Positions 1,488-36,361 are shown, numbered from the stretch's first letter. The stretch is DNA of 64,000 nt from an uncultured Gammaproteobacteria bacterium (GCA_964489875.1 CAZAZW010000003.1:13585-77584); one strand, 5' to 3'. Numbers and translations: made by a program. The notes: generated by a model from the sequence alone, not told the origin.

Positions 1488-2504
1488 TTACGGGCGGGGA
1501 GTCGGGTTATTAATATTCCATTGAATCACCCCGCCGCCAAAGTTATACCCTGATCCAATTGCCGCCATGGCTATAATATCGCCCTTTTGCAATAATCCAT
1601 CATTAAAAGCTTCACACATTGCAACAAAAATAGAAGCAGCTGAAATATTACCCATATTTTCTATATAAGAAATCATCTTATCCTGAAAGCCTAATTTCTT
1701 TGCTGCACTCTCCATGATACGGATATTCGCTTGGTGGGGGATCCACCAAGTCACATCTTTCTTAGTAACTCCGGCTCTCTCCATTGCTAACAATGTCATT
1801 TTAGTCATGGCTTTGACAGCATCTCCGTAAACCGCCGGGCCATTCATTTTGACTTTAAAATGCCCGGCTTCGATATTTTCTGGAGTGGCCGGGAAAACAC
1901 CCCCTCCTCCTTCAAAGCTGATATTCATAGCTTTTGTACCGTCGGATCCCATTACAAAACCATACGGGCCAGGATTGGGGACTATCCCTATTAAAGCTGC
2001 TCCGGCTCCATCTCCGAATAAAACACATGAACCTCTATCGGTATAATCTACAAAATCTGTTAAATTTTCCGCACCAATGACAAGAATATTTTTTCTAAAT
2101 CCCGATTGAACCATCGCATAACCAAGTTCTAAACCAGCCAAACCACCATTACAAGCATTGTTAATATCAAAAGAGGGAATATGTTTTGTTGGATTTAATC
2201 TAGCCTGCACTAAATTAGACACGGAGGGAAACAAATAATCAGGAGTAGCGGTAGCAACAATTATTTGTTCCAGTTCGGAAGGTTTCATACCAACCATTCT
2301 CAATGTTCTCTGAGCAGCATGCGTGGCTAAGTCGGAAGTATATTCACAAGGTCCAGCCACATGTCTATTTTTGATACCGGTCATCTGGATCATCCATTTA
2401 TTAGAGGTATCTAAACCCAAATCTTCACTAAAATAACTGTTGGGGCGAATCTCTTTTGGCAAATATTTACCAATAGCAATAATACCCGGACCTCTCTCTT
2501 GCAT
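1488..2504 (-). CDS. fabH: 3-oxoacyl-ACP synthase III-like condensing enzyme (FabH family)
   Basis: Cys-His-Asn triad contexts NNACNGGLAG, WIPHQANIRIM and GNISAASIF. Start moved to ATG 2504 (MQERGPGIIAIGKYLP) because the track start 2663 overlaps the divergent neighbour. Confidence 0.75.
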   Translation of the reverse strand: MQERGPGIIAIGKYLPKEIRPNSYFSEDLGLDTSNKWMIQMTGIKNRHVAGPCEYTSDLATHAAQRTLRMVGMKPSELEQIIVATATPDYLFPSVSNLVQARLNPTKHIPSFDINNACNGGLAGLELGYAMVQSGFRKNILVIGAENLTDFVDYTDRGSCVLFGDGAGAALIGIVPNPGPYGFVMGSDGTKAMNISFEGGGGVFPATPENIEAGHFKVKMNGPAVYGDAVKAMTKMTLLAMERAGVTKKDVTWWIPHQANIRIMESAAKKLGFQDKMISYIENMGNISAASIFVAMCEAFNDGLLQKGDIIAMAAIGSGYNFGGGVIQWNINNPTPRP

Positions 2505-2562
2505 GAAAAGTGAGTTTATCAAATATTGACAACCAAGTCCAGATATTATAGGATCGGCCGTG

Positions 2563-3921
2563 ATGTATGTTGACTTAGATCCTTCCATAAGAATAGTAGT
2601 TACCGGAATGGGAACAGTCAACCCACTGGGAAATGATTTGCCTTCTACTTGGAATAAGGCCATTCATGGTGAATCCGGAATAGATGTAATCTCAGATGAA
2701 TCACTTTGGGATCCCAGAGTCAGGATTGCTGGTGAAGTCAAGGATTTTGATCCTTTAATCTACTTTAAGTCTCCGCAAGAACTAAAAGGCAGGCACAGAA
2801 ATGTACTATTGGCCCATGCGGCTACATTAGAGGCTTTAAGCCAGGCTAAATTAGCAGATATTAGTGATTTAGAAAAACCTAAGTTTGACTTTGATCCCGA
2901 TGAAATAGGAATAATTTATGGGAGTGGTGTCGGAGGAGCACCATTTATAGCAGAGGTGCAGAAAACTATTATGGAAAACTCCCGAAAAGCTCTGGCAATC
3001 AATCCTCGTTCCATTCTATATGTACTAGCTGAAAGACATGCTACAGACATGGGTATGGCTTGGAATATAAAAGGTCCTGCGGCAGATATAACAGCAGCTT
3101 GTGCATCTGCTTCTAAAGCAATTGCTGCTGCAGCTCTACAAATTTCGGCAGGAGATGCAGACATTATGATCACAGGTGGAACTGAAGCGGCCATTGGTCC
3201 TATTGGAATAGGGATGTTTGCAGCAACACGGGGTGCGCTAGATACAAGAAACGACACTCCAAAACAGTCCAGCACTGCTTTCGATAAAAGCAGACAAGGG
3301 TTCGTTTTCGCTGAAGGAGCAGCCACCTTAATTTTAGAGAGATTAGACCATGCTTTAGATAGAGGTGTTTCCATTTATGCTGAACTTGTGGGATATGGAG
3401 ATAAGAGTGACGCTTATCACGAAACAGCTCCTAAAGCCATTGAGGGCTATGACGATCCGGAAAAACCCTACCTTAGAAATGAACTTTTAGTGGCAAATAA
3501 ACCAGGTTCTGTTAGGGCTATGGAGCAGGCACTAAGAAGAGCCGGTATAACTCCAGATGGAAACGATAGGGTGGACTATATTAACGCTCATGGTACTGCC
3601 ACGACTCTCGGAGATCCCGCAGAGGCGGCAGCTATTGAATACGTCTTCAGAAACTTTGACAGATATCCTCTGGTGAGTTCAACAAAGTCTATGACAGGAC
3701 ATTTACTGGGAGCTGCGGGGGGACTTGAGTCACTTATGTGTATTATGGCAATCAATAAAGGCATTATTCCCCCTACTATTAATTTAAGAAATCCCATTCA
3801 TACTCTGTTGGATTTAGTACCTAATAAAGCACGGAAATTTGATGTTAATATAGCGGAAAATAATTCCTTCGGCTTCGGCGGAATAAATCATGTGCTTGTA
3901 TTCAAGCGTTTTATTCGGTGA
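2563..3921 (+). CDS. fabF: 3-oxoacyl-ACP synthase II-like condensing enzyme (FabF/KAS II family)
   Basis: IVVTGMGTVNPLGN; Cys in ITAACASASKAI; His-His in NAHGTATTLGD and SMTGHLLGAAG; C-terminal NSFGFGGINHVLVF. The track start 2560 is GTG; an ATG lies at 2563. Confidence 0.85.
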   Translation: MYVDLDPSIRIVVTGMGTVNPLGNDLPSTWNKAIHGESGIDVISDESLWDPRVRIAGEVKDFDPLIYFKSPQELKGRHRNVLLAHAATLEALSQAKLADISDLEKPKFDFDPDEIGIIYGSGVGGAPFIAEVQKTIMENSRKALAINPRSILYVLAERHATDMGMAWNIKGPAADITAACASASKAIAAAALQISAGDADIMITGGTEAAIGPIGIGMFAATRGALDTRNDTPKQSSTAFDKSRQGFVFAEGAATLILERLDHALDRGVSIYAELVGYGDKSDAYHETAPKAIEGYDDPEKPYLRNELLVANKPGSVRAMEQALRRAGITPDGNDRVDYINAHGTATTLGDPAEAAAIEYVFRNFDRYPLVSSTKSMTGHLLGAAGGLESLMCIMAINKGIIPPTINLRNPIHTLLDLVPNKARKFDVNIAENNSFGFGGINHVLVFKRFIR

Positions 3922-3936
3922 GATTTTTTGAAAACC

Positions 3937-4347
3937 TTAGCGGACTCTGTGGCGGCGTTTGACCCGGAGTTGAGCCAAAGATTTTTCTAAATTTGCCATA
4001 GTTTCAGCATATTCTTCATCAGACAAAGTTTGAGTTAAAGCTTGCTCTGCTCTTTTTTTGGCTTCCTCAACAGCTCTTTCATCAATATCAGTAGCTAAAG
4101 TTGCCAAATCCGTCATAACAGTTAAAGTATTATCAGAAACCTGCAAAAACCCGTCCCCGATAGCCATAGATTCTGCTTTGCCGTTTCTTTTAATAACCAG
4201 CTCTCCGGGTTCTAGCTTGGCCATTAAATTAGCATGATGGGGAAGTATGCCAATCTCGCCCTGTTCAGTCGAGACATTCACTTGTGAAACCTCTTCGTCC
4301 AGTATCAACTTCTCCGGAGTAACAATTTTTAAATGCAACTGAGACAT
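3937..4347 (-). CDS. atpC: F1 ATP synthase epsilon subunit
   Basis: 136 aa. LKIVTPEKLILDEEVSQVNVSTEQGEIGILPHHANLMAKLEPGELVIK is typical of epsilon. Confidence 0.9.
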   Translation of the reverse strand: MSQLHLKIVTPEKLILDEEVSQVNVSTEQGEIGILPHHANLMAKLEPGELVIKRNGKAESMAIGDGFLQVSDNTLTVMTDLATLATDIDERAVEEAKKRAEQALTQTLSDEEYAETMANLEKSLAQLRVKRRHRVR

Positions 4348-4353
4348 AGGGAT

Positions 4354-4359
4354 ATTATA
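4354..4359 (-). promoter_or_regulatory. -10 box TATAAT placed 6 nt upstream of the atpC ATG (leaderless-type)
   Basis: The minus-strand intergenic sequence reads cttatatttcTATAATatccctATG. Confidence 0.5.
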
Positions 4360-4371
4360 TAGAAATATAAG

Positions 4372-5085
4372 TTAAGGAACAATGATCTCTAATTTCGTCG
4401 CACTTGGTTTAAGTTTCTCAACAGTCTCAGCAATCTTAAAGAACCTTACCAAATCAGGAATACCGAGATCTGCCATAAACCAATCATCTATCCTAAATCT
4501 GGATCCATCATAAGCAGCCTCTGTAGTTTTTCTAAAAGAGTTTACTCTTACACCTTCTTCTTTATGATTACCATTCAGTCTGTAGTGTTTGCCACCCAAA
4601 CTTCCCATTAATTGTGTTAAGGCGTGTCCAATCCTCAAGCCTCCTCTGTTCATGGTCTCGTGTAATTCGTACGGATATACAGCAGATTCAAGCATCCCTT
4701 GAATCCATAAATCAGCATACCCACAACCACCATGATCAGCGCTATGCGTACCCGGAGCTATACCAAATCTTTTTAATATTTCCGTTGCTCTTTGTAATCC
4801 CACTTCATCACCACCTGTCAGCATAGCCATAATAGCATTGATTCCACCTAAGACTCGAATACCTCGGACATGATGACTTGCTCCTTCTTCGCGCTGATCC
4901 TCGGCTACTAAATCTCTATCTTCTAATTGATCAAAACGACCATCTCCACACTCTAAAGCAGCACCTTTAGTTATTTTTACTAATTTAACCTCACTAACTG
5001 GAATTGTAATTACTGACCATTTTCGGTCTGTAAAATAATTAGCTATTTTATCCGGATTAAAGCCTGTATATACTTCGTATCTCAT
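4372..5085 (-). CDS. Hypothetical protein with a beta-carbonic-anhydrase-like CxDxR + HxxC motif pair
   Basis: 237 aa. ECGDGR (C46, D48, R50) and DHGGCGYA (H118, C121). No other family recognised. Confidence 0.55.
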   Translation of the reverse strand: MRYEVYTGFNPDKIANYFTDRKWSVITIPVSEVKLVKITKGAALECGDGRFDQLEDRDLVAEDQREEGASHHVRGIRVLGGINAIMAMLTGGDEVGLQRATEILKRFGIAPGTHSADHGGCGYADLWIQGMLESAVYPYELHETMNRGGLRIGHALTQLMGSLGGKHYRLNGNHKEEGVRVNSFRKTTEAAYDGSRFRIDDWFMADLGIPDLVRFFKIAETVEKLKPSATKLEIIVP

Positions 5086-5092
5086 TTGATCT

Positions 5093-5120
5093 AAAAAAAT
5101 CCGACCCGCTTGGGGTCGAA
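5093..5120 (-). terminator. Intrinsic-terminator-like hairpin + U7 on the minus strand, 8 nt upstream of the 4372..5085 start codon
   Basis: Minus strand: UUCGACCC-CAAGC-GGGUCGGA followed by UUUUUUU. The 8-bp stem includes one G-U pair. Confidence 0.55.
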
Positions 5121-5185
5121 TCTTGAAGTTTTAAGTATACCACAGATCTGTTCAAGAGATTGAAAATGGTGTAAAATTTTCTCTT

Positions 5186-5548
5186 ATGGATCACAGTTGT
5201 GAGGCAGTAATAGTTACATGTATTGATTTTAGGTTTCAGGAATATATCAATAACTGGATAGCCAGCAATTTTTCTCTCAAGTCTTTTGACCGGATTGCTA
5301 TTGCCGGGGGCGTATTTGATTTTGACTATGTTTCAAAACAGGTTGAAATATCAAAAAGGCTGCACCATATTAAAAAAGTTGTCCTGATAAATCATGAAGA
5401 CTGCGGGGCATACGGGGAAGCGGGAACGCCGGAAAAACATGCGGAAGACTTAAAAAATGCTTCGGAAAAGATCAAACAACAATATCCTGATTTAACAATG
5501 GAAACCTATTATCTTCATCTCGATGGCACCTTTGAACAGATCTCTTAA
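5186..5548 (+). CDS. Minimal (120 aa) beta-carbonic-anhydrase-like protein
   Basis: TCIDFR (C12, D14, R16) and NHEDCGAYG (H70, C73). RIAIAGG lies between them, resembling the RNAGN region. Confidence 0.6.
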   Translation: MDHSCEAVIVTCIDFRFQEYINNWIASNFSLKSFDRIAIAGGVFDFDYVSKQVEISKRLHHIKKVVLINHEDCGAYGEAGTPEKHAEDLKNASEKIKQQYPDLTMETYYLHLDGTFEQIS

Positions 5549-5568
5549 AACTGTTCTCAATTAAGCTT

Positions 5569-5643
5569 GTCATTGCGAGACCACAAAGTGGCGAAGCAAT
5601 CTTCTATGGATTGGAGAGATCGCCACTAACCCTTCGCGATGAC
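5569..5643. repeat. 75-bp GTCATT...ATGAC nested-palindrome element, intergenic copy
   Basis: gtcattgcgagaccacaaagtggcgaagcaatcttctatggattggagagatcgccactaacccttcgcgatgac. Terminal inverted repeats plus internal hairpins. Confidence 0.75.
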
Positions 5644-5693
5644 GATTTGAATAATAGTAATTATTATCACAGAAAAAATCAGTAGCTAGGATT

Positions 5694-6110
5694 ATGCTTC
5701 AAAAAGAGGGGGTGAGAATTTTGATAAAAGGTATTGAGAGTATAACTTTATTTTCTGAAGATGCCAAAAGAGTGGCAGATTTTTATAAAGATAAAGTGGG
5801 GCTTAAGATGACCATGGAAGCAGAAGTAGGGGAGGAGGGGGAAAATTTATTTGGCTTTGAATTTGAAGGAGGACCGGGACTATACATCATGGATCATTCA
5901 GAAGTCAAGGGAACCAGTACACAGCCGGAAAGGATTATTTTTAACCTGGAGGTAGATAACATTGAAGAAAATGTCAAAAGACTGGACGAGGCAGGAGTCA
6001 AAAAGATTAAAGACACCTACCATATGCAAAATTACGGGTTTATTGCAACCTTTGAAGATATTGACGGCAACTACTTCCAACTGGTTCAAATTAAAGCCAG
6101 TGAGTCCTAA
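5694..6110 (+). CDS. VOC / glyoxalase-bleomycin-resistance family protein
   Basis: 138 aa. IESITLFSEDAKRVADFYKDKVGL ... NYGFIATFEDIDGNYFQLVQ. Confidence 0.75.
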   Translation: MLQKEGVRILIKGIESITLFSEDAKRVADFYKDKVGLKMTMEAEVGEEGENLFGFEFEGGPGLYIMDHSEVKGTSTQPERIIFNLEVDNIEENVKRLDEAGVKKIKDTYHMQNYGFIATFEDIDGNYFQLVQIKASES

Positions 6111-6124
6111 TTTCATTTATGCCA

Positions 6125-6146
6125 CGGCCGTGGGATATTTGAAACA
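6125..6146. repeat. 22-nt exact repeat (second copy inside murC at 50211..50232), part of a hairpin after the VOC gene
   Basis: cggccgtgggatatttgaaaca is identical at both sites. Confidence 0.8.
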
Positions 6147-6148
6147 AC

Positions 6149-6181
6149 TTTAGCCTACAACCTTTCAGGTTGCCGCACAAA
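6149..6181. repeat. 33-nt hairpin element (GCAACCT-TTC-AGGTTGC core), likely bidirectional terminator between the VOC gene and atpD
   Basis: tttagcctacaacctttcaggttgccgcacaaa. It matches 52915..52947 at 31/33 positions and is related to 21632..21662. Confidence 0.7.
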
Positions 6182-6299
6182 TTTTGGAATACTGTATTAG
6201 AGAAGGATTATTAAAAAGTCCTATCGCTGCCATTTGCGAAATAGAATCTGTAAAACAAGACGTATTAGAAGGCGGAGTTTTTGTTACGTAAAAACGAAT

Positions 6300-8580
<2,281 letters not shown>

Positions 8581-8581
<1 letters not shown>

Positions 8582-10119
8582 TACTTCTTGCCTCCTTTTC
8601 CGCTCTTACTAAACATCCCTACAAATTCTTTAGTCACTTTTTCCAACTGCTTAGCCATACCATCATCCAGTTCTTTTTTATCTGCCACCTCAGACATCAG
8701 CTTCTTTTCCCGAAGCTTTAAGTGGGCCACATATTTTTCCTCAAATTCTTTTACTCTCTCTACTTCCACATTATCCAAATATCCATTTGTGACAGCCCAA
8801 AGCACCACTACTTGTTCCGAGAGTGCAACAGGGGAGAAGGGAGGTTGTTTCAAAACTTCGGTGACTCTTTTACCTCTTTCAATCTGCGCCTTTGTGGCCG
8901 GATCTAAATCCGAAGAAAACTGGGCAAAAGCCTGCAAAGCCCTAAATTGTGCTAAATCCAAGCGCAATTTTCCTGCCACTGACTTCATGGCTTTAGTTTG
9001 CGCGGCACCGCCCACCCGGGAAACGGATAAACCAACATTAATAGCCGGCCTGATTCCGGCAAAAAAGAGATCCCCCTCCAAATATATTTGTCCGTCAGTA
9101 ATGGAGATAACATTTGTGGGAATATAAGCGGAAACATCACCGGCTTGTGTTTCAATAATCGGCAGGGCCGTCAGTGAACCACCGCCAAAATCTTTAGAGA
9201 GCTTTGCCGCCCGCTCCAGGAGTCTTGAATGAAGGTAAAAAACATCACCTGGATAAGCTTCACGGCCGGAGGGTCGGCGAAGAAGTAAAGAGACTTGCCT
9301 ATATGCCCAGGCATGCTTGGATAAATCATCATAAATAATCAAAGCGTCTTTCCCTTGATCCATAAAATATTCACCCATGGCGCAACCGGCGTATGGAGCT
9401 AAATATTGCATCGTAGCTGAGTCAGAAGCAGAAGCGGAAACTACGATGGTATGATCCATGGCTCCCAGCTCTTCCAGTCTGGCCACAATTTGCGCAACTT
9501 TAGATGTTTTTTGTCCGATTGCCACATAAATACAGATGACATCTTTTTGGTTAATAATAGTATCTATAGCGATGGTGGTTTTACCTGTACTTCTGTCACC
9601 AATAATCAACTCCCGCTGGCCACGACCAACTGGAATCATGGCATCAATGGCTTTAATACCGGTCTGCAGGGGAGTATTAACCCCTTGCCTGGTGATAACT
9701 CCGGGAGCAATCTTTTCCACCGGGTAGTGATCTTTGGCTTTAATAGGGCCCTTGCCGTCAATCGGACTTCCCAGCGCATCAACCACCCGGCCAACCAAAG
9801 CCTCGCCAACAGGCACCTGTAAAATTTGACCGGTAGTTTTAACTTCGTCGCCTTCTTTAACCTTGGTAAAATCTCCAAAGATGACAGCTCCCACATTGTA
9901 TTGCTCCAAATTTAGTGCTAACCCGTAAACTTCTTTTCCAAAATCCAACAATTCCGAATATTTAACATCTGATAACCCTTCGATCCTGGCTACCCCGTCA
10001 CCGATTTCAGTAACTATACCCATATTTTGTTTTTGGGCTTTTAATTTTAAACCTTTAATCTGGTTTTCTATATCAGCTATAAGCGAAGCTTGCGAGCTAC
10101 CGCTCTTTAAATCAGCCAC
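8581..10119 (-). CDS. atpA: F1 ATP synthase alpha subunit
   Basis: 512 aa. [18 protein letters not shown]. Confidence 0.97.
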
Positions 10120-10507
10120 TGATAGCCTCCTTTACCTGATTAATCTTACCTGAAACTGATTCATCCCAAATCTCGTCTCCAATCCGGAGTTTAAATCCAC
10201 CTAAAATCTCCGGGTTAATATTAACTAAAACTCTGGCAATTTTAACCTTTTTCTCCACAATTTTTTTCATTCTTTTAACCTGGGCAGGGGATAGCGGGAC
10301 CACCGTTTCAATATACATAGTATGCTCTCGCTCTTTTCTTTTTAAGTTTTTTAAATATTCTGATAAAGCTGGTATTGCTTCAGACCTTGACAGAGATTTT
10401 AATACTTTAATTGATCGGGCCACTTGCGCTTCCGCTATCTTACCGTCTTTAAAACTTAAATCTATCAATTTATTAACTGTTTTTTGTAATTGTTTTCTGA
10501 TTTTCAT
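10112..10507 (-). CDS. atpH: ATP synthase delta (OSCP) subunit, short form
   Basis: 131 aa, positioned between atpF and atpA. The C-terminal [22 protein letters not shown] is OSCP-like. Confidence 0.7.
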
Positions 10508-10995
10508 GATAGGTTCTTGATCTCCTTTTCAATAATTTCTTTTTGGTCTTTTTTCAACACTTTGCCGGCCACTTTCTCCATTCCTGCTGCCACAATATCA
10601 GCCATTTTACTCATTATTTGTTGCTCCATCCTTCCTGCCTCGGCCCTGGCAGCCTCTTCACCCTTTCTGATTATCTCCTCTACCTGAAGCTTGGCATTCT
10701 GCTTCATCTCTTCCCGCATTTCTTCCAGCTCTTTTTTAGTCTCATCCAACAATTTTTGTGCCTCATTTGCTGCTTTCGCCAAAACTTTTTCTTTTTCTTC
10801 CTCTGTTTCTAAAAGTCTTTTTTCAATTTCCTCAGCATTTTTTAAACTCTCTTCAATCTTTTTCTTCCGTTCTTCTAAAACCTTCAAGATTGGCTTATAC
10901 AGAAACCTTTTTAGGATAAAAAGGAGTAAGAAAAAATTAACTACCTGCGCAGCCAAAAGTAATGGATTTATTCCAAATTGATTTAAAATTTCCAT
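10504..10995 (-). CDS. atpF: ATP synthase Fo subunit b
   Basis: 163 aa with an N-terminal TM followed by a long charged helix; operon position supports the call. Confidence 0.8.
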   Translation of the reverse strand: MEILNQFGINPLLLAAQVVNFFLLLFILKRFLYKPILKVLEERKKKIEESLKNAEEIEKRLLETEEEKEKVLAKAANEAQKLLDETKKELEEMREEMKQNAKLQVEEIIRKGEEAARAEAGRMEQQIMSKMADIVAAGMEKVAGKVLKKDQKEIIEKEIKNLS

Positions 10996-11007
10996 AAGTG
11001 AAAGGGA

Positions 11008-11075
11008 ACAGGGTACAGTGAACAGGTTACAGTAATCGCTAGAAAACTGTCACCTGTAACCTAAAACCTGTAACC
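11008..11075 (-). other. Intercistronic imperfect stem-loop directly after the atpE stop, arms built of CTGTAAC-type heptamers
   Basis: acagggtacagtgaacaggttacagt ... actgtcacctgtaacctaaaacctgtaacc. The inner 12 bp pair with one mismatch. Confidence 0.6.
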
Positions 11076-11330
<255 letters not shown>

Positions 11331-11335
11331 TTAAT

Positions 11336-12058
11336 TTAGTGTTCTACTGCATGCTTTTCTGACAGTAACACCATAAACACCAGTGTTAACATCATAAAAA
11401 CAGCAGCCTGTACAAATCCTACAATAATTTCCAGAAAATAAAAAGGGAGCGGTACTATAAAGGCAAAAATTGATGAGATCGTTACCAGCACCACCTCCCC
11501 GGCAAATATATTACCAAAAAGCCGAAAGGAAAGTGAGACTATTTTAGTAAATTCTCCCACAATCTCCAAAAGACCCACAAATAAAAATATCGGGTTTAGC
11601 GTAAACCACTTTTTTAAATATTCGATAATACCTAAGTAACGAAGGGCAAAAATATGAGTTAAGGCTGCCGAGGTCAAAGCCAGAGCCAAAGTCATGTTTA
11701 AATCAGAGTTCATGGAACGAAGCAGTGGTTCCTTATGATAAGTGATGGTGGCAAAGCCCGGGAGTAAACCGATCCAGTTGGAAAAAAGGATAAACAAGAA
11801 AAATGTCATCACAATCGGGAAAAAGACTTTGGCTTTTTTGTCCCCAGCAAGTTCTGAAACTGTACTGTAGCCAAAATCAATTACCATCTCAAACAAACCC
11901 TGCAGTCCGGAGGGAACAAGTTGAACCTTCCTTGTTGACAAAAAACTAACGATCGTCAAGAAAATGATTACAATCCAAGAAACCAGCAGAGTATTGGTAA
12001 TGGGGAAATTTTGAAAATATCCCAAAATTTCCGGCGGCAGCACTATTCCATGTTCCAT
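11336..12058 (-). CDS. atpB: ATP synthase Fo subunit a
   Basis: Multi-TM protein with SLSFRLFGNIFAGE. The track start 12082 is TTG and lies 2 nt from the predicted -10 box, so ATG 12058 (MEHGIVLPPE) is preferred. Confidence 0.85.
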   Translation of the reverse strand: MEHGIVLPPEILGYFQNFPITNTLLVSWIVIIFLTIVSFLSTRKVQLVPSGLQGLFEMVIDFGYSTVSELAGDKKAKVFFPIVMTFFLFILFSNWIGLLPGFATITYHKEPLLRSMNSDLNMTLALALTSAALTHIFALRYLGIIEYLKKWFTLNPIFLFVGLLEIVGEFTKIVSLSFRLFGNIFAGEVVLVTISSIFAFIVPLPFYFLEIIVGFVQAAVFMMLTLVFMVLLSEKHAVEH

Positions 12059-12084
12059 ATAAATATTGTGCTTGAATGCCAAGT

Positions 12085-12113
12085 ATTTTACAAGAAGCTA
12101 ATAATATGGTCAA
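12085..12113 (-). promoter_or_regulatory. Sigma70-type promoter of the atp operon: TTGACC-17 nt-TAAAAT
   Basis: Minus strand reads TTGACCatattattagcttcttgTAAAAT. Confidence 0.55.
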
Positions 12114-12206: not shown

Positions 12207-13691
12207 TCAATTATCAAATATCAGCAGGAAAATGTTTAATTGGCTGATTGTCAAAGTTAGCCTTCTGCCGATTTGAATCAGTGGCATAAAGAAAAAGTCA
12301 AACAGAAGATATCCTATATTCTCTTTTTTCTCCCTAAAAATAAACATATGGGCAGTCCGGTTAATCCTGTAACTAACGAATGAAACAATTGCCAAGAAAA
12401 AGATAAACACACCCTGGGAAAACGGATTTACATTCAGCTTAGTCAGAATAAATACCACTGCTCCAAAGCTTAAAGCAGCAGTTGCTATCCAAAGTATGGC
12501 AAATACAACCCAAAGCAACGGATCAATCTTATTGGGTTTTTTCTTAACCAAAAGAGGGGTACTAAGCACAGGTGGATCATCATACAAAATAGTATTTATT
12601 TTGCGTAAAATCCGGTATGAGTTTTCTCTATTAGGGGATTCAATCAAAAACCCCACTATAATCATCAGGATAGGCGGAGTTAGAACATTTATAGCAATAG
12701 AGGACCAGTATGTCTTTCCATAAAGCAGCCTTTCAAATGTTCCTTCGATAAACAGAGCAAAGACAGCTTTTGTCACAAAAATAAAGATCACGGATCTCAC
12801 AATCGCCCTTCTGACTTTTCCGGCAATAGATTTATAGCGGGCGTTGCATGCGGCCAGCACCTCTGAACTTAAGTATTCCTCATTTGAAACTGTAGCCAGA
12901 GCCTTTCCTCTGTGCTTGCGTAAAACATCATCTAGTATTAGAAAGGGGATTGTTTGATTTTTTACATATGAATGAATCTTATCTTTGGCCGGATACTTAA
13001 ACTGCTCTTCTATCTGTTTGAGAGCCTGTGGAAAATGGTTGGCAATTTTTTCCAGATTCTCTGCATCTAAACTTCCAAAATATTGGATAAATAAATGGTA
13101 GCGCAGAAACGCCAAATCCTCATTGGCATAGGCGCGCCTTACAGCGATAAAAACCTGGAGATCCTTTACCTCTTCGCTGTCATCAGTAATAGTTACGGCA
13201 TCCCTAAAGATCCTGAACATGAAATTACTCATCACATCTTTCGGATCATGAGGTTTCAAAACATGCTCTATCTCGGAAGACAGAAGGTGCAGAATCCACT
13301 CATTAACCACTCCTTTATTGATACGGTGATCCCGGTTAATTTTATCCTCCAGCTTCAAATATAAATCTATAGTTTCTTCAACCTTGACCACTTGAGACTC
13401 CGTGATTGATGAGTCGGGAAAATAGCGGGCCCAAACCAGTTCCCTAATCAAAGGCGGGGCTATTGTTCTACCATTTCCTCCTAAAATTAACCTTCTCTTT
13501 AAGATTCGCTCAATTGTTGAACGGAGAATTACCTCATCTTCCCTATAATCCATGGCTGTACGGAATTTTTCATACCAGGTGGCTATTTCTGCAACCAAAG
13601 GATTTACGGAAATAGTCCGGTCATGATTTGGGGCAAAAGTTCTATCATATGCTGCTACTAAACCTAACGATAATTTATTTAATGTCGCCAT
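12207..13691 (-). CDS. Hypothetical membrane protein (soluble N-terminal ~300 aa, about 5 C-terminal TM helices)
   Basis: 494-aa ORF with hydrophobic segments from about residue 300. No family recognised. Confidence 0.65.
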   Translation of the reverse strand: MATLNKLSLGLVAAYDRTFAPNHDRTISVNPLVAEIATWYEKFRTAMDYREDEVILRSTIERILKRRLILGGNGRTIAPPLIRELVWARYFPDSSITESQVVKVEETIDLYLKLEDKINRDHRINKGVVNEWILHLLSSEIEHVLKPHDPKDVMSNFMFRIFRDAVTITDDSEEVKDLQVFIAVRRAYANEDLAFLRYHLFIQYFGSLDAENLEKIANHFPQALKQIEEQFKYPAKDKIHSYVKNQTIPFLILDDVLRKHRGKALATVSNEEYLSSEVLAACNARYKSIAGKVRRAIVRSVIFIFVTKAVFALFIEGTFERLLYGKTYWSSIAINVLTPPILMIIVGFLIESPNRENSYRILRKINTILYDDPPVLSTPLLVKKKPNKIDPLLWVVFAILWIATAALSFGAVVFILTKLNVNPFSQGVFIFFLAIVSFVSYRINRTAHMFIFREKKENIGYLLFDFFFMPLIQIGRRLTLTISQLNIFLLIFDN

Positions 13692-22150: not shown

Positions 22151-25036
22151 ATGGCAGAACAAGTTTCTGAAAGTCCGTTAGTTGTTTTAGACCGGATTAA
22201 AGTCAACCAAAAACTGGGAGAGAACATGGATGTTCCGGGTGTACTTTCGGACGTTGGCCTGTTTGTCCAGATGGGAGTGACAAAGCTTCCCGAAACCTCC
22301 AAATATTTAAAAAACTTTGGCCTTCAAAAAAACGTTCGGACAACCTTACTTTATAGAATCCGTGAAGGCTACCAACGAAAAGATACAAAAGGAGTTTTGC
22401 AGGATTTATCCATTGCCGAAGCTATCGGCATGAGCGAAATGCCGGAAGTTGCACCCTATCTTTCTTACATCCAAACTAACCTCCAAAACAAATTCCGAGA
22501 ACCGGCACCCAAAAAAGCTGCAGTAAAAAAACCAAAACAGCGCCATTTAAAAAGAAAGCTTGCCCTGGCTGCCGCTACTGGCTTAGTTGCTTTTACCTCA
22601 CTTACAGGTTCAGGTGCCCCAATCACTAAAGCCCTAGACGATCTATTACATAAACAAAACACTACCCAAGCAAGCTCCAGAGAAGAAACCGCAGCAGAAA
22701 CAGGGACTACGTCTGAAACAAAAGAAGTATCTACCAGTCCGGATTTTCAGCAGCTGATCAAACCTTTTGTAGATGAAGCCATGAAAAGACGGGCTGAACG
22801 GGCAGCCAATGACCCCGAATACTACAACCGAGTAGATAAAGAGCTCAACCAGGACCGGGTTAACATTCTTCTCTACGGATATGGTGAGGAATGGAAAGGT
22901 GGGGAAGATATGGATCAACCGACTTTTGGATCTCACTCCATCTTCTCAATCAACTTAAAATCCGGCAAAATCGATCTTGTTTCTCCAACTCACGACACCC
23001 GGGCTCCGGAAATCGAACAGTTCCTGAAGAAAAACGGAAAAGAAGCGCGTCCGACCAGAATAGACCGGGCATATGATATCGGCGGGTATGATCTGATGCG
23101 GCAGGTGTTGGAAGATGCAACCGGTCTTTCAGTTGATTATCAAATCAGGGCTGAAGATACTCTTATCAAATATCTCGTTGATAATCTCGGCGGTATCAAT
23201 GTTGATATCCCTTTTAATGTAAATACAAAGCAGTTCCGTGACGACGGAAAGATGTATCCTCCGCACCAGTTCTCTAAAGGATCTCAGAAAATGGATGGTA
23301 TTACGGCTCTCCAATTTATTAAAGCCTGGTCAGACCCGGTTGATCCTGCCAAAGAGCGCAATATCCGAAAACATCTGGCGATGAAAGCCATATTTGATCA
23401 GGTCAAACAAAAAACAAAAGAGGGAGATCGGATGTTTGGTATTAACATGTTTTCTCTTCTGGCCACTGAAAACCTGAAGGGCAATATCGGATTTGATTTT
23501 GATGAAAAGCAGTTTATCTTTCCAGTGCTGGGAAATTTGGGAAAGCTGGGAAAATTGGATCTTTCTATAGAAAAAACCATCTTTGTAGTAGACCCGGCCA
23601 TCGGCGACGGGGGAGTTCAGTGGATCACTGCCAATGCTGCTGAAAATCCTATCACCCAAAAAGATATTGAAAATGGTGTATATGGCCAAGACTTGGCTAT
23701 GGAGATTCCTTTCAATGCCAATCCCTACTCATCAAATCTGGTGCGCGATTATTGGAAATCTGTCAGGGATTTGATAAGCAGCCGACTCGGCAAACCCCAA
23801 CAACCAACAGTAGGTAAACCAGAACCTGCTCCTCCAGCCGCCACTCCAACCTCATCACCATCTCCTTCTCCAACTGCCAGCCCGACACCGACTCCCACCA
23901 AAACACCGGAACCAACACCTACACCTGAAATCAAAACCTTTAAAAAAGATATCTTCAGGGAACAAATCGCCCCGATTATTTATAAAAAAATAGAGAGAAT
24001 CAGAGCTGAGCGGGAAGCCAATGACCCCGAATATTACCAAAGAATCAATAAAGAATTAAACAATGGGAAAATCAACATCTTAATTACCGGCGGCAGAGAA
24101 GATGATGATTTAACGGATTCTATTCAACTGTTTTCCTGGGATCCTGCCACTAATTCTCTCTATGTCATCTCTATCCCCAGGGATCTGCAATCCCCTGAAG
24201 TTTTGCAGAAGACAAAAAGCCAAATTGATTCTAAAATAAATCAGGCCACCCATTTCACCGCCAACACTGATCTGTTAAAACTAGCTGTGGAAAATGCCAC
24301 CGCCTTATCAGTTGACATGTACATGCATGTAGGTTTTAGCGCCTTTGAAGATACTATAAACAAGACAGTAAAAACGGTTGACGTTGAACTGGATAAGGAC
24401 ATTGTCGATAATGCCTACCCAACCGAAGATAATTGGTACAAGCGAATTGAATACCGAAAAGGTCCCAATAAACTAACCGGAGAGCAGGCTTTGGAAGTAG
24501 TCAGAACCAGACATATCGACAATGACTACGAAAGGTCTAAAAGGCAACAGATGATCATTGAAGCTTTAATAAAGAAGATACTATCTGATAATTTTTTCAA
24601 CCAGTTCAGTCATTTATCTACTTTAAGGGATATCTGGTATGAAGATGTCAAGGGCAAAAGCACCATCAAACCGGATTTTGATTTAGATGATCTATTTTTC
24701 AACGACTTAGGGCGTTTAGCACAAAAAATTCCGCAGATGGCTTGGGCCAAGCTTTCTGGGCAAGCCAAAATGGCCGAAATTCCGACCATTTTTACAACCG
24801 GCTTAACCAATAGAAACTTTGTGGTGGGAGCCGGTATTATAAGAAAAGACGGCACAGAAAGCTACAACACCAAAATTAGCGGTGGCAATCCCAATACTAA
24901 CAACCCCAGAAAAGATTATTGGGCTAAATCCCGAAATTTCGTCGACAACTTTATTAAAGGAAATGCCGGTGAACCACCTGAAGAGGAAGAGATTCAAATA
25001 GAGATCCCTACAAATTCAGAAAATCCAACCTCTTAA
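22151..25036 (+). CDS. Membrane protein with two tandem LytR-CpsA-Psr (LCP) domains
   Basis: Cytoplasmic N-domain and one TM (LALAAATGLVAFTSL). LCP1 begins VNILLYGYG ... and LCP2 begins INILITGG..SIPRDL... A PT-rich linker separates them. Confidence 0.8.
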   Translation: MAEQVSESPLVVLDRIKVNQKLGENMDVPGVLSDVGLFVQMGVTKLPETSKYLKNFGLQKNVRTTLLYRIREGYQRKDTKGVLQDLSIAEAIGMSEMPEVAPYLSYIQTNLQNKFREPAPKKAAVKKPKQRHLKRKLALAAATGLVAFTSLTGSGAPITKALDDLLHKQNTTQASSREETAAETGTTSETKEVSTSPDFQQLIKPFVDEAMKRRAERAANDPEYYNRVDKELNQDRVNILLYGYGEEWKGGEDMDQPTFGSHSIFSINLKSGKIDLVSPTHDTRAPEIEQFLKKNGKEARPTRIDRAYDIGGYDLMRQVLEDATGLSVDYQIRAEDTLIKYLVDNLGGINVDIPFNVNTKQFRDDGKMYPPHQFSKGSQKMDGITALQFIKAWSDPVDPAKERNIRKHLAMKAIFDQVKQKTKEGDRMFGINMFSLLATENLKGNIGFDFDEKQFIFPVLGNLGKLGKLDLSIEKTIFVVDPAIGDGGVQWITANAAENPITQKDIENGVYGQDLAMEIPFNANPYSSNLVRDYWKSVRDLISSRLGKPQQPTVGKPEPAPPAATPTSSPSPSPTASPTPTPTKTPEPTPTPEIKTFKKDIFREQIAPIIYKKIERIRAEREANDPEYYQRINKELNNGKINILITGGREDDDLTDSIQLFSWDPATNSLYVISIPRDLQSPEVLQKTKSQIDSKINQATHFTANTDLLKLAVENATALSVDMYMHVGFSAFEDTINKTVKTVDVELDKDIVDNAYPTEDNWYKRIEYRKGPNKLTGEQALEVVRTRHIDNDYERSKRQQMIIEALIKKILSDNFFNQFSHLSTLRDIWYEDVKGKSTIKPDFDLDDLFFNDLGRLAQKIPQMAWAKLSGQAKMAEIPTIFTTGLTNRNFVVGAGIIRKDGTESYNTKISGGNPNTNNPRKDYWAKSRNFVDNFIKGNAGEPPEEEEIQIEIPTNSENPTS

Positions 25037-25060: not shown

Positions 25061-27148
25061 ATGGATTTGAAAACTTCACTCTCAGGTCTTACCGGAATTG
25101 GACCCGGGCTTTCATACAGGCTCAAAAGGCTCAATTTAAATACTATTGAGGACTTAATTTACCACTTTCCTTTTAGGTATGATGACTTTTCTAATACCAC
25201 TTCAGCCCTGGATGCCAAGATAGGGGAGAATGTAACGCTGCAAGGGGAGATTTGGTCTATCCAGAATATTTTTACCAGGTCCAGAAAAATCATCACCAAA
25301 GCCGTATTTAATGACGGCACCTCACCAATAGAGTTAACTTGGTTCCACTCCTCTTGGCTGACTAAACAAATCCAGACAGGTGACAGACTACAGGTTTCCG
25401 GAAAAGTCAGCAAGTATAAAAATAAGCTTTCAATCATTGCCCCACGCTGGGAAAAACTCACCGAGACATTGACCCGCCGACCCACTGATATACCAACCAT
25501 CCATACTGGAAGGCTTGTGCCAATATACCCTGAAACAGAAGGCTTAAGCTCTAAATGGCTGCGGACAAAAATAGATAAACTACTGCCCCTGGTTATAGAT
25601 GAAATCAGCGATCCCTTGCCAAACCAAATCAGAAATGGGATGCTAACACTGACACAGGCCATTCAGCAAGTCCATTTTCCGGAAGATATACAGCAAGCAG
25701 AAAAGGCTAGGGAAAGATTGGGTTTTGACGAGCTGTTTTTTGTTTCGCTTGCTACCCAAAAAGCCCGCATGGAATGGAAGAAAAAACCCATATTGGAACC
25801 GTTAAAAATTAACCCAAAAGACGTCAAGGATTTTACTGATCATCTACCTTTTAAATTAACCGGCGCCCAAGAAAAGGTCTTAAAAGAAATCTTAGATGAT
25901 CTTAAAAAAGATCAGCCCATGAATAGGTTAGTACAAGGAGAGGTAGGCTCAGGGAAAACTGTAGTAGCCACCATTATTGCCTATTTAGTCCACAAAAATG
26001 GCTTGCGTACCTTATTTATGGCTCCGACGGAAATTCTGGCCTTCCAGCATTTTGAGACACTTTCCAAACTTCTCAAACCTTTTGGGGTAACAGTGGGAAT
26101 ATATACTGGGAGCAAGAAGAGTCAAGAGTCAAGAGTCAAGAGTCAAGGAAAAAAGAAATCTAGACTCTCGACTCTAGCGACTAGCCACTATTCTGACATC
26201 ATCATCGGCACCCATGCCCTGCTGTCCCAAAAGCTTGCCACTAACAATGTCGGGCTAGTCATTATCGACGAACAGCAACGCTTTGGAGTGGAACAAAGAA
26301 CTCTGCTTCGTTCCAAAGCCAAAATCCCGCATTTTCTGACTATGACCGCCACCCCGATACCCAGAACCGTAGCGCTAACTTTATATGGAGATTTGGATAT
26401 GTCGGTTATTGATGAAATGCCGGTGGGACGACAAAAAGTGAAAACATATCTTGTCCCGGAAAAAAAGAGGCAGGATTCTTATAAATTTATCGCCAAAAAA
26501 GTAGCAGCGGGGGATCAAGTCTATATCATTACGCCCTTAATCGAAGCTTCGGAAACTTTAATCACGGTGAAGGCCGCCAAAGTGGAATTTGAGAAACTTA
26601 AAAAAGTATTCCCCACTTTTAGCCTGGATTTACTCCACGGCAGGATGAAAGGAGCTGATAAAGATGCTGTTATCAAAAATTTCCGCTCCGGACAAACGGA
26701 CATCCTGGTTTCCACTTCCGTAGTTGAGGTGGGCATGGATAACCCCAATGCCACCATTATTGTAATTGAAGGGGCGGAGAGATTCGGCCTGGCCCAGCTT
26801 CATCAACTTCGAGGAAGAGTTGGCAGAGGAGAAAAGCAGTCTTATTGCCTGCTTTACACATCAAATTTCTCAAGTGACGAAAGCAGGCGCCTGAAATATC
26901 TGGAAACTACTTTTGACGGCTTGAAGCTCGCTGAGTTAGATTTAAAAATCCGCGGCAGCGGGGAGATCTTTGGAACTATGCAGTCAGGTAGGTTTGAATT
27001 TAAAATTGCCAGTTTCAGCAATATCACACTGCTTGAAAAAACCAGGCAAGCAGCCAAAGAATTATTGGTCATAGATCCCACCCTTGACAAACACCCGCTG
27101 CTCAAGGCAAAATTACAGGATATCGCATCAGAAGTGATGCCTGATTAA
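25061..27148 (+). CDS. recG: ATP-dependent DNA helicase RecG
   Basis: 695 aa. Wedge domain, GEVGSGKTVVA, DEQQRFGV, TATPIPRT, QLRGRVGRG. Confidence 0.93.
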   Translation: MDLKTSLSGLTGIGPGLSYRLKRLNLNTIEDLIYHFPFRYDDFSNTTSALDAKIGENVTLQGEIWSIQNIFTRSRKIITKAVFNDGTSPIELTWFHSSWLTKQIQTGDRLQVSGKVSKYKNKLSIIAPRWEKLTETLTRRPTDIPTIHTGRLVPIYPETEGLSSKWLRTKIDKLLPLVIDEISDPLPNQIRNGMLTLTQAIQQVHFPEDIQQAEKARERLGFDELFFVSLATQKARMEWKKKPILEPLKINPKDVKDFTDHLPFKLTGAQEKVLKEILDDLKKDQPMNRLVQGEVGSGKTVVATIIAYLVHKNGLRTLFMAPTEILAFQHFETLSKLLKPFGVTVGIYTGSKKSQESRVKSQGKKKSRLSTLATSHYSDIIIGTHALLSQKLATNNVGLVIIDEQQRFGVEQRTLLRSKAKIPHFLTMTATPIPRTVALTLYGDLDMSVIDEMPVGRQKVKTYLVPEKKRQDSYKFIAKKVAAGDQVYIITPLIEASETLITVKAAKVEFEKLKKVFPTFSLDLLHGRMKGADKDAVIKNFRSGQTDILVSTSVVEVGMDNPNATIIVIEGAERFGLAQLHQLRGRVGRGEKQSYCLLYTSNFSSDESRRLKYLETTFDGLKLAELDLKIRGSGEIFGTMQSGRFEFKIASFSNITLLEKTRQAAKELLVIDPTLDKHPLLKAKLQDIASEVMPD
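26119..26184. repeat. Heptamer-periodic hairpin (GAGTCAA x4 ... TAGACTC TCGACTC TAGCGAC) inside recG
   Basis: gagtcaagagtcaagagtcaagagtcaagg-aaaaaagaaatc-tagactctcgactctagcgactag. Confidence 0.8.
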
Positions 27149-35398: not shown

Positions 35399-36361
35399 TT
35401 ACTTATTTATGTCGCCGGCAGAAAAAATGGCATAGTCAAAATAGGGGGGGACTACGTTCTCAAACTGGCAGACTTGGATCTTTCTTTGTGTCTGGCCGGA
35501 AGTACCTGTGGATACTAATATCTTAGCTTGAGTCGGTATACAACCACTTGTATTATCATTTTCTCTGCAGACGCTTCCGGCGGCAGCTCGTACTGCAAAT
35601 GGTTGACTTTTTGAGCTATACAAAAGCCTGGCACGAAGCAGTATTAAAGTTGAAGGCGAAGAAGGCAAGGATCCTCCCGGATCACTTGAGCTTCCAAGCG
35701 TATACTGACATTGATATTCCGGTAACTCAGGGATGCCGCCATTGCAAAGCACTTTTTCAAAGCCATTATTTGTAGCCCTGGTAGCCGATAGATGGTCAAG
35801 ATACCATTTGCGGCTTCGGTACTTTGGTGTTGATCCATCAACTAAATCCGTAGGATCTGTTCCATAATAAACTATGGTTACTTCTAAAGCAGCCTTGTCA
35901 TTGTTGTCAGAAGAATCTCCCCAATAAACATCAAGACTGGTCTGTTTATAGCAATAATCAGTAGCGCTACACGTTGGCAGATTTAGCTTTGGATCTGCCA
36001 GCCAAATTTGGGCTATATCTTCTTTAGCAAACTCGGATCCGCCGAGAGAGCATTTGATAGGGTCCTGGCGCCGAGGGGTCTCAAACGAAGCAGGAATTGC
36101 CGGTATTGCCTCATTTTTATTTACCTCCGCGCTGGAATTGTTATCCGGAAAAGAGACGGTTATTAAATTGTTATTTCTTGGTTCGCTTAATGCTTTCTCT
36201 ATTCCCGCCTCAGCTGCTGAGAAAGCTCTGGAAGATTGCTCGACTTTTGAAGAGGTTGATATATCAGACAGTGAACGTTGAATAACTGATAAACCAATCG
36301 CCAAAGCCACAGTCATTACTAAAATTAATATTAAAATCACTTGGCCTTTTTGGCTTCTCAT
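35399..36361 (-). CDS. PilX_N-like pilus protein
   Basis: MRSQKGQVILILILVMTVALAIGL, with no Glu at position +5. 320 aa. Confidence 0.6.
   Translation of the reverse strand: MRSQKGQVILILILVMTVALAIGLSVIQRSLSDISTSSKVEQSSRAFSAAEAGIEKALSEPRNNNLITVSFPDNNSSAEVNKNEAIPAIPASFETPRRQDPIKCSLGGSEFAKEDIAQIWLADPKLNLPTCSATDYCYKQTSLDVYWGDSSDNNDKAALEVTIVYYGTDPTDLVDGSTPKYRSRKWYLDHLSATRATNNGFEKVLCNGGIPELPEYQCQYTLGSSSDPGGSLPSSPSTLILLRARLLYSSKSQPFAVRAAAGSVCRENDNTSGCIPTQAKILVSTGTSGQTQRKIQVCQFENVVPPYFDYAIFSAGDINK

Follow-up and report, generated by a model that had tools for sequence, protein, structure and literature searches.

The gene for the epsilon subunit of ATP synthase, atpC, is separated from the other structural genes of the enzyme (atpBEFHAGD) in a stretch of 64,000 nucleotides from a metagenome-assembled genome (GCA_964489875.1 CAZAZW010000003.1:13585-77584; hereafter the window, with coordinates counted from its first letter) and in the related loci that carry both atpC and atpD, and it very probably has its own promoter, as judged from a conserved −10 box next to its start codon. 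The observations as a whole are best explained by two separate expression units for ATP synthase, an ancestral split between them, and an attenuator in the leader of the carbonic anhydrase (CA)-like gene of the CDCA type that precedes atpC in the window. We assign this explanation a probability of about 0.72. The positions of the features are collected in Table 1.

The window is part of a Candidatus Daviesbacteria genome (Patescibacteria, also called the candidate phyla radiation, CPR). The epsilon cluster to which it belongs is named Candidatus Daviesbacteria in the sources, and the corresponding NCBI phylum is Daviesiibacteriota of the Microgenomates group. The record title "uncultured Gammaproteobacteria bacterium" is a poor taxonomic guide. 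Daviesbacteria-type atp loci with 70–88% identical epsilon subunits were found under records titled [quoted passage not shown] (loci L013, L014, L017, L019, L021, and many more). For comparison, 61 distinct Daviesbacteria-type loci (epsilon at least 57% identical) were collected from one genome per species, with atpC as the seed and an epsilon alignment as a probe that is neutral as to the neighbouring genes. Loci were picked by two epsilon peptide patterns as the best 80 of 210, and the sister Microgenomates phyla lie outside the sample. In each locus, atpD, atpG, the CA-like genes, and the gene for a vicinal oxygen chelate (VOC) family protein were placed by tblastn; atpD is on the same contig in 45 of the 61 loci. 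A comparison set of 27 loci with epsilon subunits 41–49% identical came from other CPR classes, Verrucomicrobia, and others, and all 27 carry atpD on the contig. All accepted Pfam matches exceeded the curated cut-offs. A metagenome scan with an alignment of the CDCA-type protein yielded 7 loci, 4 of them new.

The atpC gene of the window lies on the same strand (minus) as the main operon atpBEFHAGD and does not directly follow atpD. The gap between the two genes is 1,952 nt and contains two genes on the opposite strand. Specifically, it holds the VOC gene and the gene for a 120-residue CA-like protein of the Pro_CA_2 family (both plus strand), and the gene for a 237-residue CA-like protein of the CDCA type (minus strand). 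Both the detachment of atpC and these three genes had been described in a first-pass annotation of the window, with which the open reading frame (ORF) map agrees. The distance between atpD and atpC is 356–6,569 nt in all 45 Daviesbacteria-type loci carrying both genes, and −1 to 101 nt in all 27 loci of the comparison set. Relatives with CDCA-type proteins 80, 65, 51, 46, and 42% identical to that of the window all show the order atpBEFHAGD, opposite-strand genes, one or more CA-like genes, and atpC. The cargo of the gap varies from one gene for 242 residues (L005) to eight genes (L006), and includes IS200/IS605-type transposase genes and toxin–antitoxin pairs. No epsilon-like remnant was detected beside atpD at E ≤ 0.01 in the gaps of 50 loci. 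Since the gap is shared by 45 of 45 loci, the split is, on the evidence of gene order, ancestral to the sampled Daviesbacteria-type lineage and not recent. The space between atpD and atpC would have become a variable region in which a divergent Pro_CA_2 gene recurs and a CDCA-type gene stands ahead of atpC in about a quarter of the species, the remaining cargo (VOC, IS200-type transposase, and toxin–antitoxin genes) being changeable.

Both domains of the epsilon subunit are recognised in the atpC product, namely the N-terminal beta-sandwich domain (PF02823, E = 1.7e-26, 92.4 bits against a cut-off of 27) and the C-terminal two-helix regulatory domain (PF00401, E = 1.1e-9, 38.7 bits against a cut-off of 24.6), and the protein is strongly conserved among the relatives, including its C-terminal region. 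An exact TATAAT is present 6–11 nt ahead of the atpC ATG in 37 of the 61 Daviesbacteria-type loci, and a box with at most one mismatch in 55. The spacer between box and ATG is most often 6–7 nt (6 nt in 26 loci and 7 nt in 11). The box is kept whichever gene lies upstream (CDCA, Pro_CA_2, or another), and none of the 27 loci with contiguous atpD and atpC has an exact TATAAT at this position. In this respect the own expression signal of atpC proposed in the first-pass annotation stands. No Shine-Dalgarno-like motif was found upstream of atpC, unlike atpH, atpA, and atpG, which are preceded by AAGGAGG-type ribosome-binding sites. Because its −10 geometry is shared with first genes and a Shine-Dalgarno site is lacking, unlike in the internal atp genes, atpC looks like a first gene by the standard of this genome. 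The second expression unit would consist of atpC alone, read from the −10 box 6–7 nt before its ATG into a leaderless or near-leaderless mRNA that would start at or next to the start codon, the usual design of first genes here.

A TATAAT-like box lies 5–11 nt before 19 of the 60 predicted gene starts of the window, compared with 7 of 289 internal in-frame ATGs, and leaderless-type promoters are thereby suggested to be common in Daviesbacteria. The literature searched yielded no paper that ties leaderless starts to CPR. Examples of the leaderless-type geometry in the window are the genes at 12207–13691 (−), 22151–25036 (+), 25061–27148 (+), 35399–36361 (−), and 57192–58361 (−).

The first expression unit would be atpBEFHAGD, transcribed from a promoter before atpB, with the internal genes translated via Shine-Dalgarno sites or coupling. 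Its genes overlap or are separated by short gaps. Most relatives have TTGAC, 17–18 nt, TAnAAT, 6–8 nt, and ATG ahead of atpB, and in the window the best sigma-70-type match of the scan is found at the same place (Table 1). The atpB gene (11336–12082, −) had been listed from a TTG at 12082, which is probably wrong; the ATG at 12058 is preferred because it gives a length of 240 residues as in the relatives and is preceded, 6 nt upstream, by a CACAAT box that is conserved in the relatives. At the other end of the operon, the DNA after atpD is devoid of terminator-like sites in the window, as it is over 250 nt in 41 of 45 relatives. A picture of the operon ending at a terminator is therefore unsupported.

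The gene identities of the main operon were confirmed with Pfam as follows: atpB, PF00119; atpE, PF00137; atpF, PF00430; atpH, PF00213; atpA, PF00006 and PF00306; atpG, PF00231; and atpD (6300–7667, −), PF00006. The delta subunit gene atpH (10112–10507, −) encodes only 131 residues, the same length as in L001 and L003, and its product covers only positions 54–171 of the profile of the oligomycin sensitivity-conferring protein, the usual N-terminal part being absent. In the distant relative L006, two extra ORFs of 138 and 83 residues without Pfam match (1762–2416) lie between atpG and atpD. Just upstream of atpB, a 494-residue ORF at 12207–13691 (−) has no Pfam match and carries TATAAT 7 nt ahead of its ATG; an unannotated 447-residue gene occupies the same place in a distant relative.

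A hairpin followed by U7 on the minus strand, also pointed out in the first-pass annotation, is real and is conserved in relatives with compensatory changes. The stem-loop spans 5100–5121 (extendable to 5125), the U-run spans 5093–5099, and the element sits in the 100-nt divergent region between the Pro_CA_2 and CDCA-type genes. The predicted fold has a free energy of −15.8 kcal/mol (z = −3.6); none of 200 shuffled sequences folded equally well. It is the strongest hairpin followed by at least six U residues in the whole 64-kb window, where nearly all other candidates are intragenic. Fifteen distinct CDCA-type loci share one layout, consisting of an extended −10 box (TGnTAnnnT; TGGTATACT in the window), 10–13 nt, a stem of 5–9 pairs, U6–7, 0–9 A-rich nucleotides, and ATG. 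Both-sided changes are present in 6 of 9 stem pairs, for example CC/GG to UU/AA in L093, and 0 of 500 shuffles reached that level. Each CDCA-bearing locus has a single copy of the motif GTCGGATTTTTT, with no further copy among 93 loci, and the hairpin is absent from the 23 loci in which Pro_CA_2 directly faces atpC. One apparent exception to the pairing of hairpin and CDCA, L014, turned out to have a divergent CDCA gene that was found by a sensitive search. TTGAAC or TTGACC was considered as the −35 element of the CDCA promoter and was rejected; the spacer would be just 8–10 nt, and an extended −10 box accounts for the conserved TGn.

Because the hairpin lies between the conserved extended −10 box and the ATG of the CDCA-type gene, and is found only with CDCA-type genes, it is, by its sequence context, a leader element of this gene. 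The first-pass annotation had assigned it the role of stopping read-through from atpD, which it may also do but which cannot be its general role since the 23 loci with Pro_CA_2 facing atpC do without the element. As far as its sequence and place can tell, it is an intrinsic terminator in form, with a GC-rich stem and a U-run, and an attenuator or a 5′ stabiliser in position. It does not close a transcription unit; the minus strand upstream of it contains no gene end for 1.2 kb. An Rfam search of the whole window at the gathering score, and of positions 3800–6400 at E ≤ 1, gave nothing relevant and one chance microRNA match. No aptamer, leader peptide, or alternative antiterminator pairing is visible in the leader of approximately 45 nt, which folds as a single hairpin. 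The element is most likely a promoter-proximal terminator or attenuator that would limit transcription, from the own or an upstream promoter, into CDCA and thence atpC; it may alternatively be a 5′ stabilising stem. In the window, the CDCA promoter may also feed transcription into atpC, with the leader hairpin as the gate.

A possible, though rather unlikely, alternative is that the hairpin and U7 serve chiefly as an insulator, which would terminate transcription arriving from atpD or running antisense to Pro_CA_2 and leave CDCA and atpC on their own promoters. The element has the correct strand for such a role, its perfect U7 tract is conserved in relatives, and it is the sole strong intrinsic-terminator-like site from atpD to atpC. 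However, it follows CDCA's own extended −10 box at 10–13 nt, so that the transcripts of that promoter would be hit equally. Its absence from the 23 loci mentioned above, despite the same atpD upstream, and its restriction to CDCA-type genes also favour the leader element of CDCA over an insulator.

The 237-residue protein matches the CDCA family PF18484 (43.4 bits, cut-off of 29.2) and belongs to a small family of 59 clusters. Among solved structures, phmmer matched only the repeats of diatom CDCA1, and Foldseek with the AlphaFold model (predicted local distance difference test score, pLDDT, of 92.3) likewise gave CDCA1 only (E = 2e-14, template modelling (TM) score of 0.72–0.82). C46, D48, R50, H114, and C121 are invariant in 59 homologues. 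The ligands of CDCA1 are Cys473, His525, and Cys535, with Asp475 nearby (PMC8217695). The spacing from His to Cys is 7 in the 237-residue protein and 3 in the divergent subtype L010, as against 10 in CDCA1, and phmmer pairs the invariant H114 with a non-ligand His of CDCA1. It is plausible from the sequences that H114 is equivalent to the ligand His.

The 120-residue protein, present in most relatives, scores 67.5 bits against PF20393 (cut-off of 30), and 21.2 bits against the classical beta-CA family PF00484, which is below the cut-off of 25.7. C12, D14, R16, H70, and C73 are invariant and constitute the zinc-site motifs CxDxR and HxxC. The top 50 solved-structure matches of its AlphaFold model (pLDDT 93.5) are all beta-class CAs (TM score of 0.74). 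By profile and model, it is a minimal beta-CA-like protein of PF20393, with predicted enzyme activity. Its gene has a −10-like box ahead of the ATG in 26 of 40 loci. No description of PF18484 or PF20393 in CPR was found in the literature searched.

The neighbour of atpC, defined as a gene within 110 nt upstream, was determined in the 61 loci by profile searches. The coupling of atpC to a CA-like gene claimed in the first-pass annotation held in part: a same-strand CDCA-type gene stands directly ahead of atpC in 17 loci, a divergent Pro_CA_2 gene on the opposite strand in 23, and neither gene in 21. At least one CA-like gene lies upstream of atpC in about 49 of the 61 loci; on contigs that include atpD, it lies between the two atp genes. 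In loci without CDCA, the start codons of Pro_CA_2 and atpC are typically ~16–36 nt and up to ~100 nt apart. In L012, L013, L024–L026, L031, L035, L040, and others, with start codons about 24–30 nt apart, the −10 boxes of the two genes are back to back or overlapping, as in ATCAAGATATTATACAATACCTCT, and competition between the two promoters for RNA polymerase would follow. Several loci contain damaged CA-like genes: a CDCA fragment (residues 103–201) 11 nt from atpC at 9693–9989 of L032, a truncated Pro_CA_2 start at about 9950–9990 of L029, and a CDCA gene split over two frames by a frameshift at 5977–6488 of L093. Because of these remnants, CDCA and Pro_CA_2 are suggested to be old residents that are sometimes lost.

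The comparison set shows that the association of Pro_CA_2 with atpC reaches beyond the Daviesbacteria phylum: in 12 of its 27 loci (Komeilibacteria, Parcubacteria-type, and others), the next gene after atpC, on the atpC strand, encodes a 149-residue homologue (CxDxR...HWDC). In these loci (L059, L064, L065, L069, L072, L073, L074, L079, L082, L084, L085, and L086), it lies about 70–170 nt after atpC; L059 has two copies in tandem, and the copy of L064 lacks the His and Cys. These loci suggest an accessory place for Pro_CA_2 in the atp operons of CPR. A simple inversion of the atpD–atpC–Pro_CA_2 order of other CPR was considered as the origin of the Daviesbacteria arrangement and rejected; it would flip atpC too, which was not observed. 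A third CA-like paralogue of ~240 residues (CVDGR...GCGH), with no or a weak Pfam match, occupies the usual divergent position of Pro_CA_2 in L005 (3938–4666, −), L006 (8460–9215, −), L051 (7759–8493, −), and JGI 3300071358 (239 residues).

The neighbourhood of CA-like genes suggests a possible tie of atpC to CO2/bicarbonate or pH handling. A more far-reaching proposal, which we regard as doubtful, is that the CA-like proteins (Pro_CA_2 and, where present, the zeta-CA-like protein) are partners of ATP synthase in CPR, forming with the separately dosed epsilon a CO2-, bicarbonate-, or pH-responsive module that would set proton pumping against inhibition, and that the hairpin and U7 would be a new, very small cis-regulatory attenuator tuning this module. 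Its support is syntenic, namely the CA-like genes in about 49 of the 61 Daviesbacteria-type loci and the Pro_CA_2 gene after atpC in 12 of the 27 others. Literature searches on a link between CA and ATP synthase gave no description of the present arrangement.

Several points weigh against two separate expression units. Transcription start sites, leaderless translation, and termination were all deduced from the DNA sequence alone. The promoter consensus used was of the sigma-70 type, and CPR promoters are as yet unmapped. Before atpC, a good −10 box is missing from its expected position in six of the 61 loci. In the window, atpC may be co-transcribed with CDCA, which is 24 nt away with no terminator between them, and antisense read-through toward atpC may occur, as no canonical terminator follows atpD. 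A terminator so close behind its own promoter would, if unregulated, cost that promoter most of its transcripts; neither an antiterminator nor an aptamer is visible. Regarding the CA-like genes, neither is found within 110 nt of atpC in 21 of the 61 loci, and some contigs end early; with so many loci lacking such a neighbour, the CA link is not obligatory.

Some of these points would suit a single operon in practice, in which the polymerase reads from atpD, antisense over VOC and Pro_CA_2, into CDCA and atpC, and in which the TATAAT before atpC is an AT-rich by-product or a translation enhancer. The missing terminator after atpD and the single strand shared by all atp genes agree with it. We nevertheless consider a single operon improbable. 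Opposite-strand genes intervene in the window and in most relatives, with a gap of up to 6.6 kb, and the strongest terminator-like hairpin of the window stands in the path. Moreover, a consensus hexamer at a fixed distance of 6–7 nt, conserved regardless of the upstream gene and absent from contiguous loci, counts against it, and the same geometry is present at other first genes, including atpB.

Still less probable is that the palindrome ahead of CDCA acts as DNA. In that case a repressor dimer would bind it as an operator, between the −10 box and the start codon, and no RNA structure would be involved. Its inverted repeat has conserved outer half-sites, TTCGAC...GTCGGA, at a classic roadblock position, and symmetric changes would preserve a palindromic operator as they would a stem. 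On the other hand, the half-sites are 3 to 7 nt apart depending on the locus, G-U type pairs are tolerated (U-G at two positions), which suits RNA and not DNA symmetry, and the strictly conserved U6–7 directly after the stem is a hallmark of intrinsic terminators.

The first-pass annotation had left room for a recent insertion. In that case, a mobile or horizontally acquired block of VOC and two CA-like genes would have split a canonical operon in this genome. The cargo does differ among relatives, some of which carry IS200/IS605-type transposase and toxin–antitoxin genes, and a palindrome resembling a miniature inverted-repeat transposable element (MITE) lies within the gap of the window. The synteny check proposed in that annotation gave the opposite answer: all 45 relatives with both genes have the split, at epsilon identities down to 57%, and the cargo alone varies, the CA-like genes keep the same relative position where the CDCA proteins are just 42–51% identical, and the decayed copies in L032, L029, and L093 suggest old residents lost and not new arrivals. 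A recent insertion is thus very improbable. An assembly or binning artefact, with a chimeric contig placing atpC in the wrong neighbourhood of this metagenome-assembled genome, can practically be dismissed, since the same order is present on independent NCBI, JGI, and Logan assemblies, including contigs of 0.3–1.1 Mb.

The other contents of the gap are the VOC gene and a long palindromic element that resembles MITE or repetitive extragenic palindromic (REP) sequences. The homologues of the VOC protein, whose gene is present in some relatives only, align from residue 7–10 on, and its true start is probably the TTG at 5721, after GAGGGGGTGA. The terminus of the palindrome, GTCATTGCGAG, recurs in the window at 41041–41051 (−), 49553–49563 (+), and 49634–49644 (−). 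On the other side of atpC, a FabH-like gene (ketoacyl synthase (KAS) III, −) and a FabF-like gene (KAS I/II, +) are arranged head to head at their starts within 1488–3921, and the 3′ end of the FabF-like gene converges on atpC at 15 nt. A FabF-like neighbour is also present in L001. Such a pair represents condensing enzymes of the fatty-acid or polyketide type, and the lineage is commonly described as being without lipid synthesis.

Table 1 Features of the atp region in the window. Coordinates are counted from the first letter of the window.
Feature	Position	Strand	Basis and remarks
atpC, ATP synthase epsilon subunit, two domains	3937..4347	−	Pfam PF02823 and PF00401
Putative −10 box of atpC, TATAAT	4354..4359	−	6 nt ahead of the atpC start codon, inside the 24-nt CDCA–atpC spacer; leaderless-type geometry
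237-residue zeta-class (CDCA-like) CA homologue	4372..5085	−	Pfam PF18484; spacer of 24 nt to atpC
Leader hairpin followed by U7	5093..5125	−	12 nt downstream of the −10 box; 7 nt from its end to the CDCA ATG
Putative extended −10 box of the CDCA-like gene	5134..5142	−	TGnTAnnnT columns invariant or nearly so in 15 distinct loci
TAAAAT box ahead of Pro_CA_2	5172–5177	+	8 nt from ATG
120-residue minimal beta-CA-like gene (Pro_CA_2)	5186..5548	+	Pfam PF20393; divergent from CDCA and atpC
Long palindromic MITE/REP-like element	5567..5645		Between Pro_CA_2 and VOC; fold −38.4 kcal/mol, z = −3.2
VOC/glyoxalase-family gene, 138 residues	5694..6110	+	Pfam PF00903; variable cargo
Spacer in which the 3′ ends of atpD (−) and VOC (+) face each other	6111..6299		No canonical hairpin and U terminator inside
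atpB-atpE-atpF-atpH-atpA-atpG-atpD, main operon of seven genes	6300..12082	−	ORFs, Pfam
Second −10-like box before atpB, CACAAT	12065–12070	−	6 nt from the probable start ATG 12058
Promoter-like site of the main operon, TTGACC, 17 nt, TAAAAT	12085..12113	−	Best sigma-70-type hit of the scan (10 of 12 positions)

The epsilon subunit is the built-in brake of bacterial F-ATPases, and the adjacency of beta and epsilon is among the most stable gene pairs of bacteria. With two expression units, the amount of epsilon could be set apart from the catalytic and membrane subunits, near enzymes of CO2 and bicarbonate. An own epsilon promoter across a candidate phylum would mean that epsilon dosage is set independently in small fermentative symbionts, which bears on whether the ATPase makes ATP or burns it for membrane potential. 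The recurrent neighbourhood of atpC provides a concrete hypothesis for two unusual CA-like families, one of which is otherwise known only from diatoms. Common leaderless-type promoters, if true, would improve the prediction of gene starts and operons in CPR genomes. Overall, the split of epsilon is a so far unreported way of arranging the operon, whose regulatory consequences can be tested, and not a new kind of system.

Compared with the canonical atpIBEFHAGDC operon of E. coli and Bacillus, the Daviesbacteria loci agree in all eight structural genes and their order on a single strand, with internal genes that have Shine-Dalgarno sites or are coupled. They differ in that atpC is 0.36–6.6 kb from atpD, with opposite-strand genes between them and its own −10 box. 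Split atp operons are known from cyanobacteria and chloroplasts (atp1 and atp2), and some alpha-proteobacteria have separate F0 and F1 clusters. To our knowledge, these keep beta and epsilon adjacent (atpD–atpC, or atpB–atpE in plastid naming). The Daviesbacteria loci likewise appear to have more than one transcription unit, but the break isolates epsilon alone from beta. Literature searches on an atpC split in CPR and on a separation of beta and epsilon gave no description of this arrangement.

Promoter-proximal intrinsic terminators (leader attenuators) and 5′-terminal stabilising stem-loops are known classes. The CDCA leader resembles them in having a GC-rich stem and a U-run a few nucleotides from the predicted 5′ end. 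Unlike leader attenuators, it is only ~45 nt and has no leader peptide, antiterminator pairing, aptamer, or Rfam match. Leaderless promoters are well known in Actinobacteria such as Mycobacterium, in which a −10 box is likewise located ~6–7 nt from the start codon, a Shine-Dalgarno site is lacking, and first genes are frequently concerned (PMC3898074, PMC4633059); the Daviesbacteria case differs in being predicted from the genomes.

Regarding the CA-like proteins, the 237-residue protein shares the predicted fold, the CxD motif, and a second Cys followed by Gly with CDCA1, the zeta-class Cd/Zn CA of Thalassiosira weissflogii (PDB 3boh, 3bob, and 3uk8; PMC8217695). Unlike CDCA1, it has a single domain in place of three repeats, is only ~23% identical, comes from a bacterial and non-photosynthetic host, and has a predicted activity. 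The best structural match of the 120-residue protein is the Cab-type beta-CA of Methanobacterium thermoautotrophicum (PDB 1g5c). CxDxR, HxxC, and the spacing from Cys to His are similar to those of beta-CAs, whereas the protein has 120 residues against about 170–220, belongs to the separate Pfam family PF20393, and is a CA by prediction.

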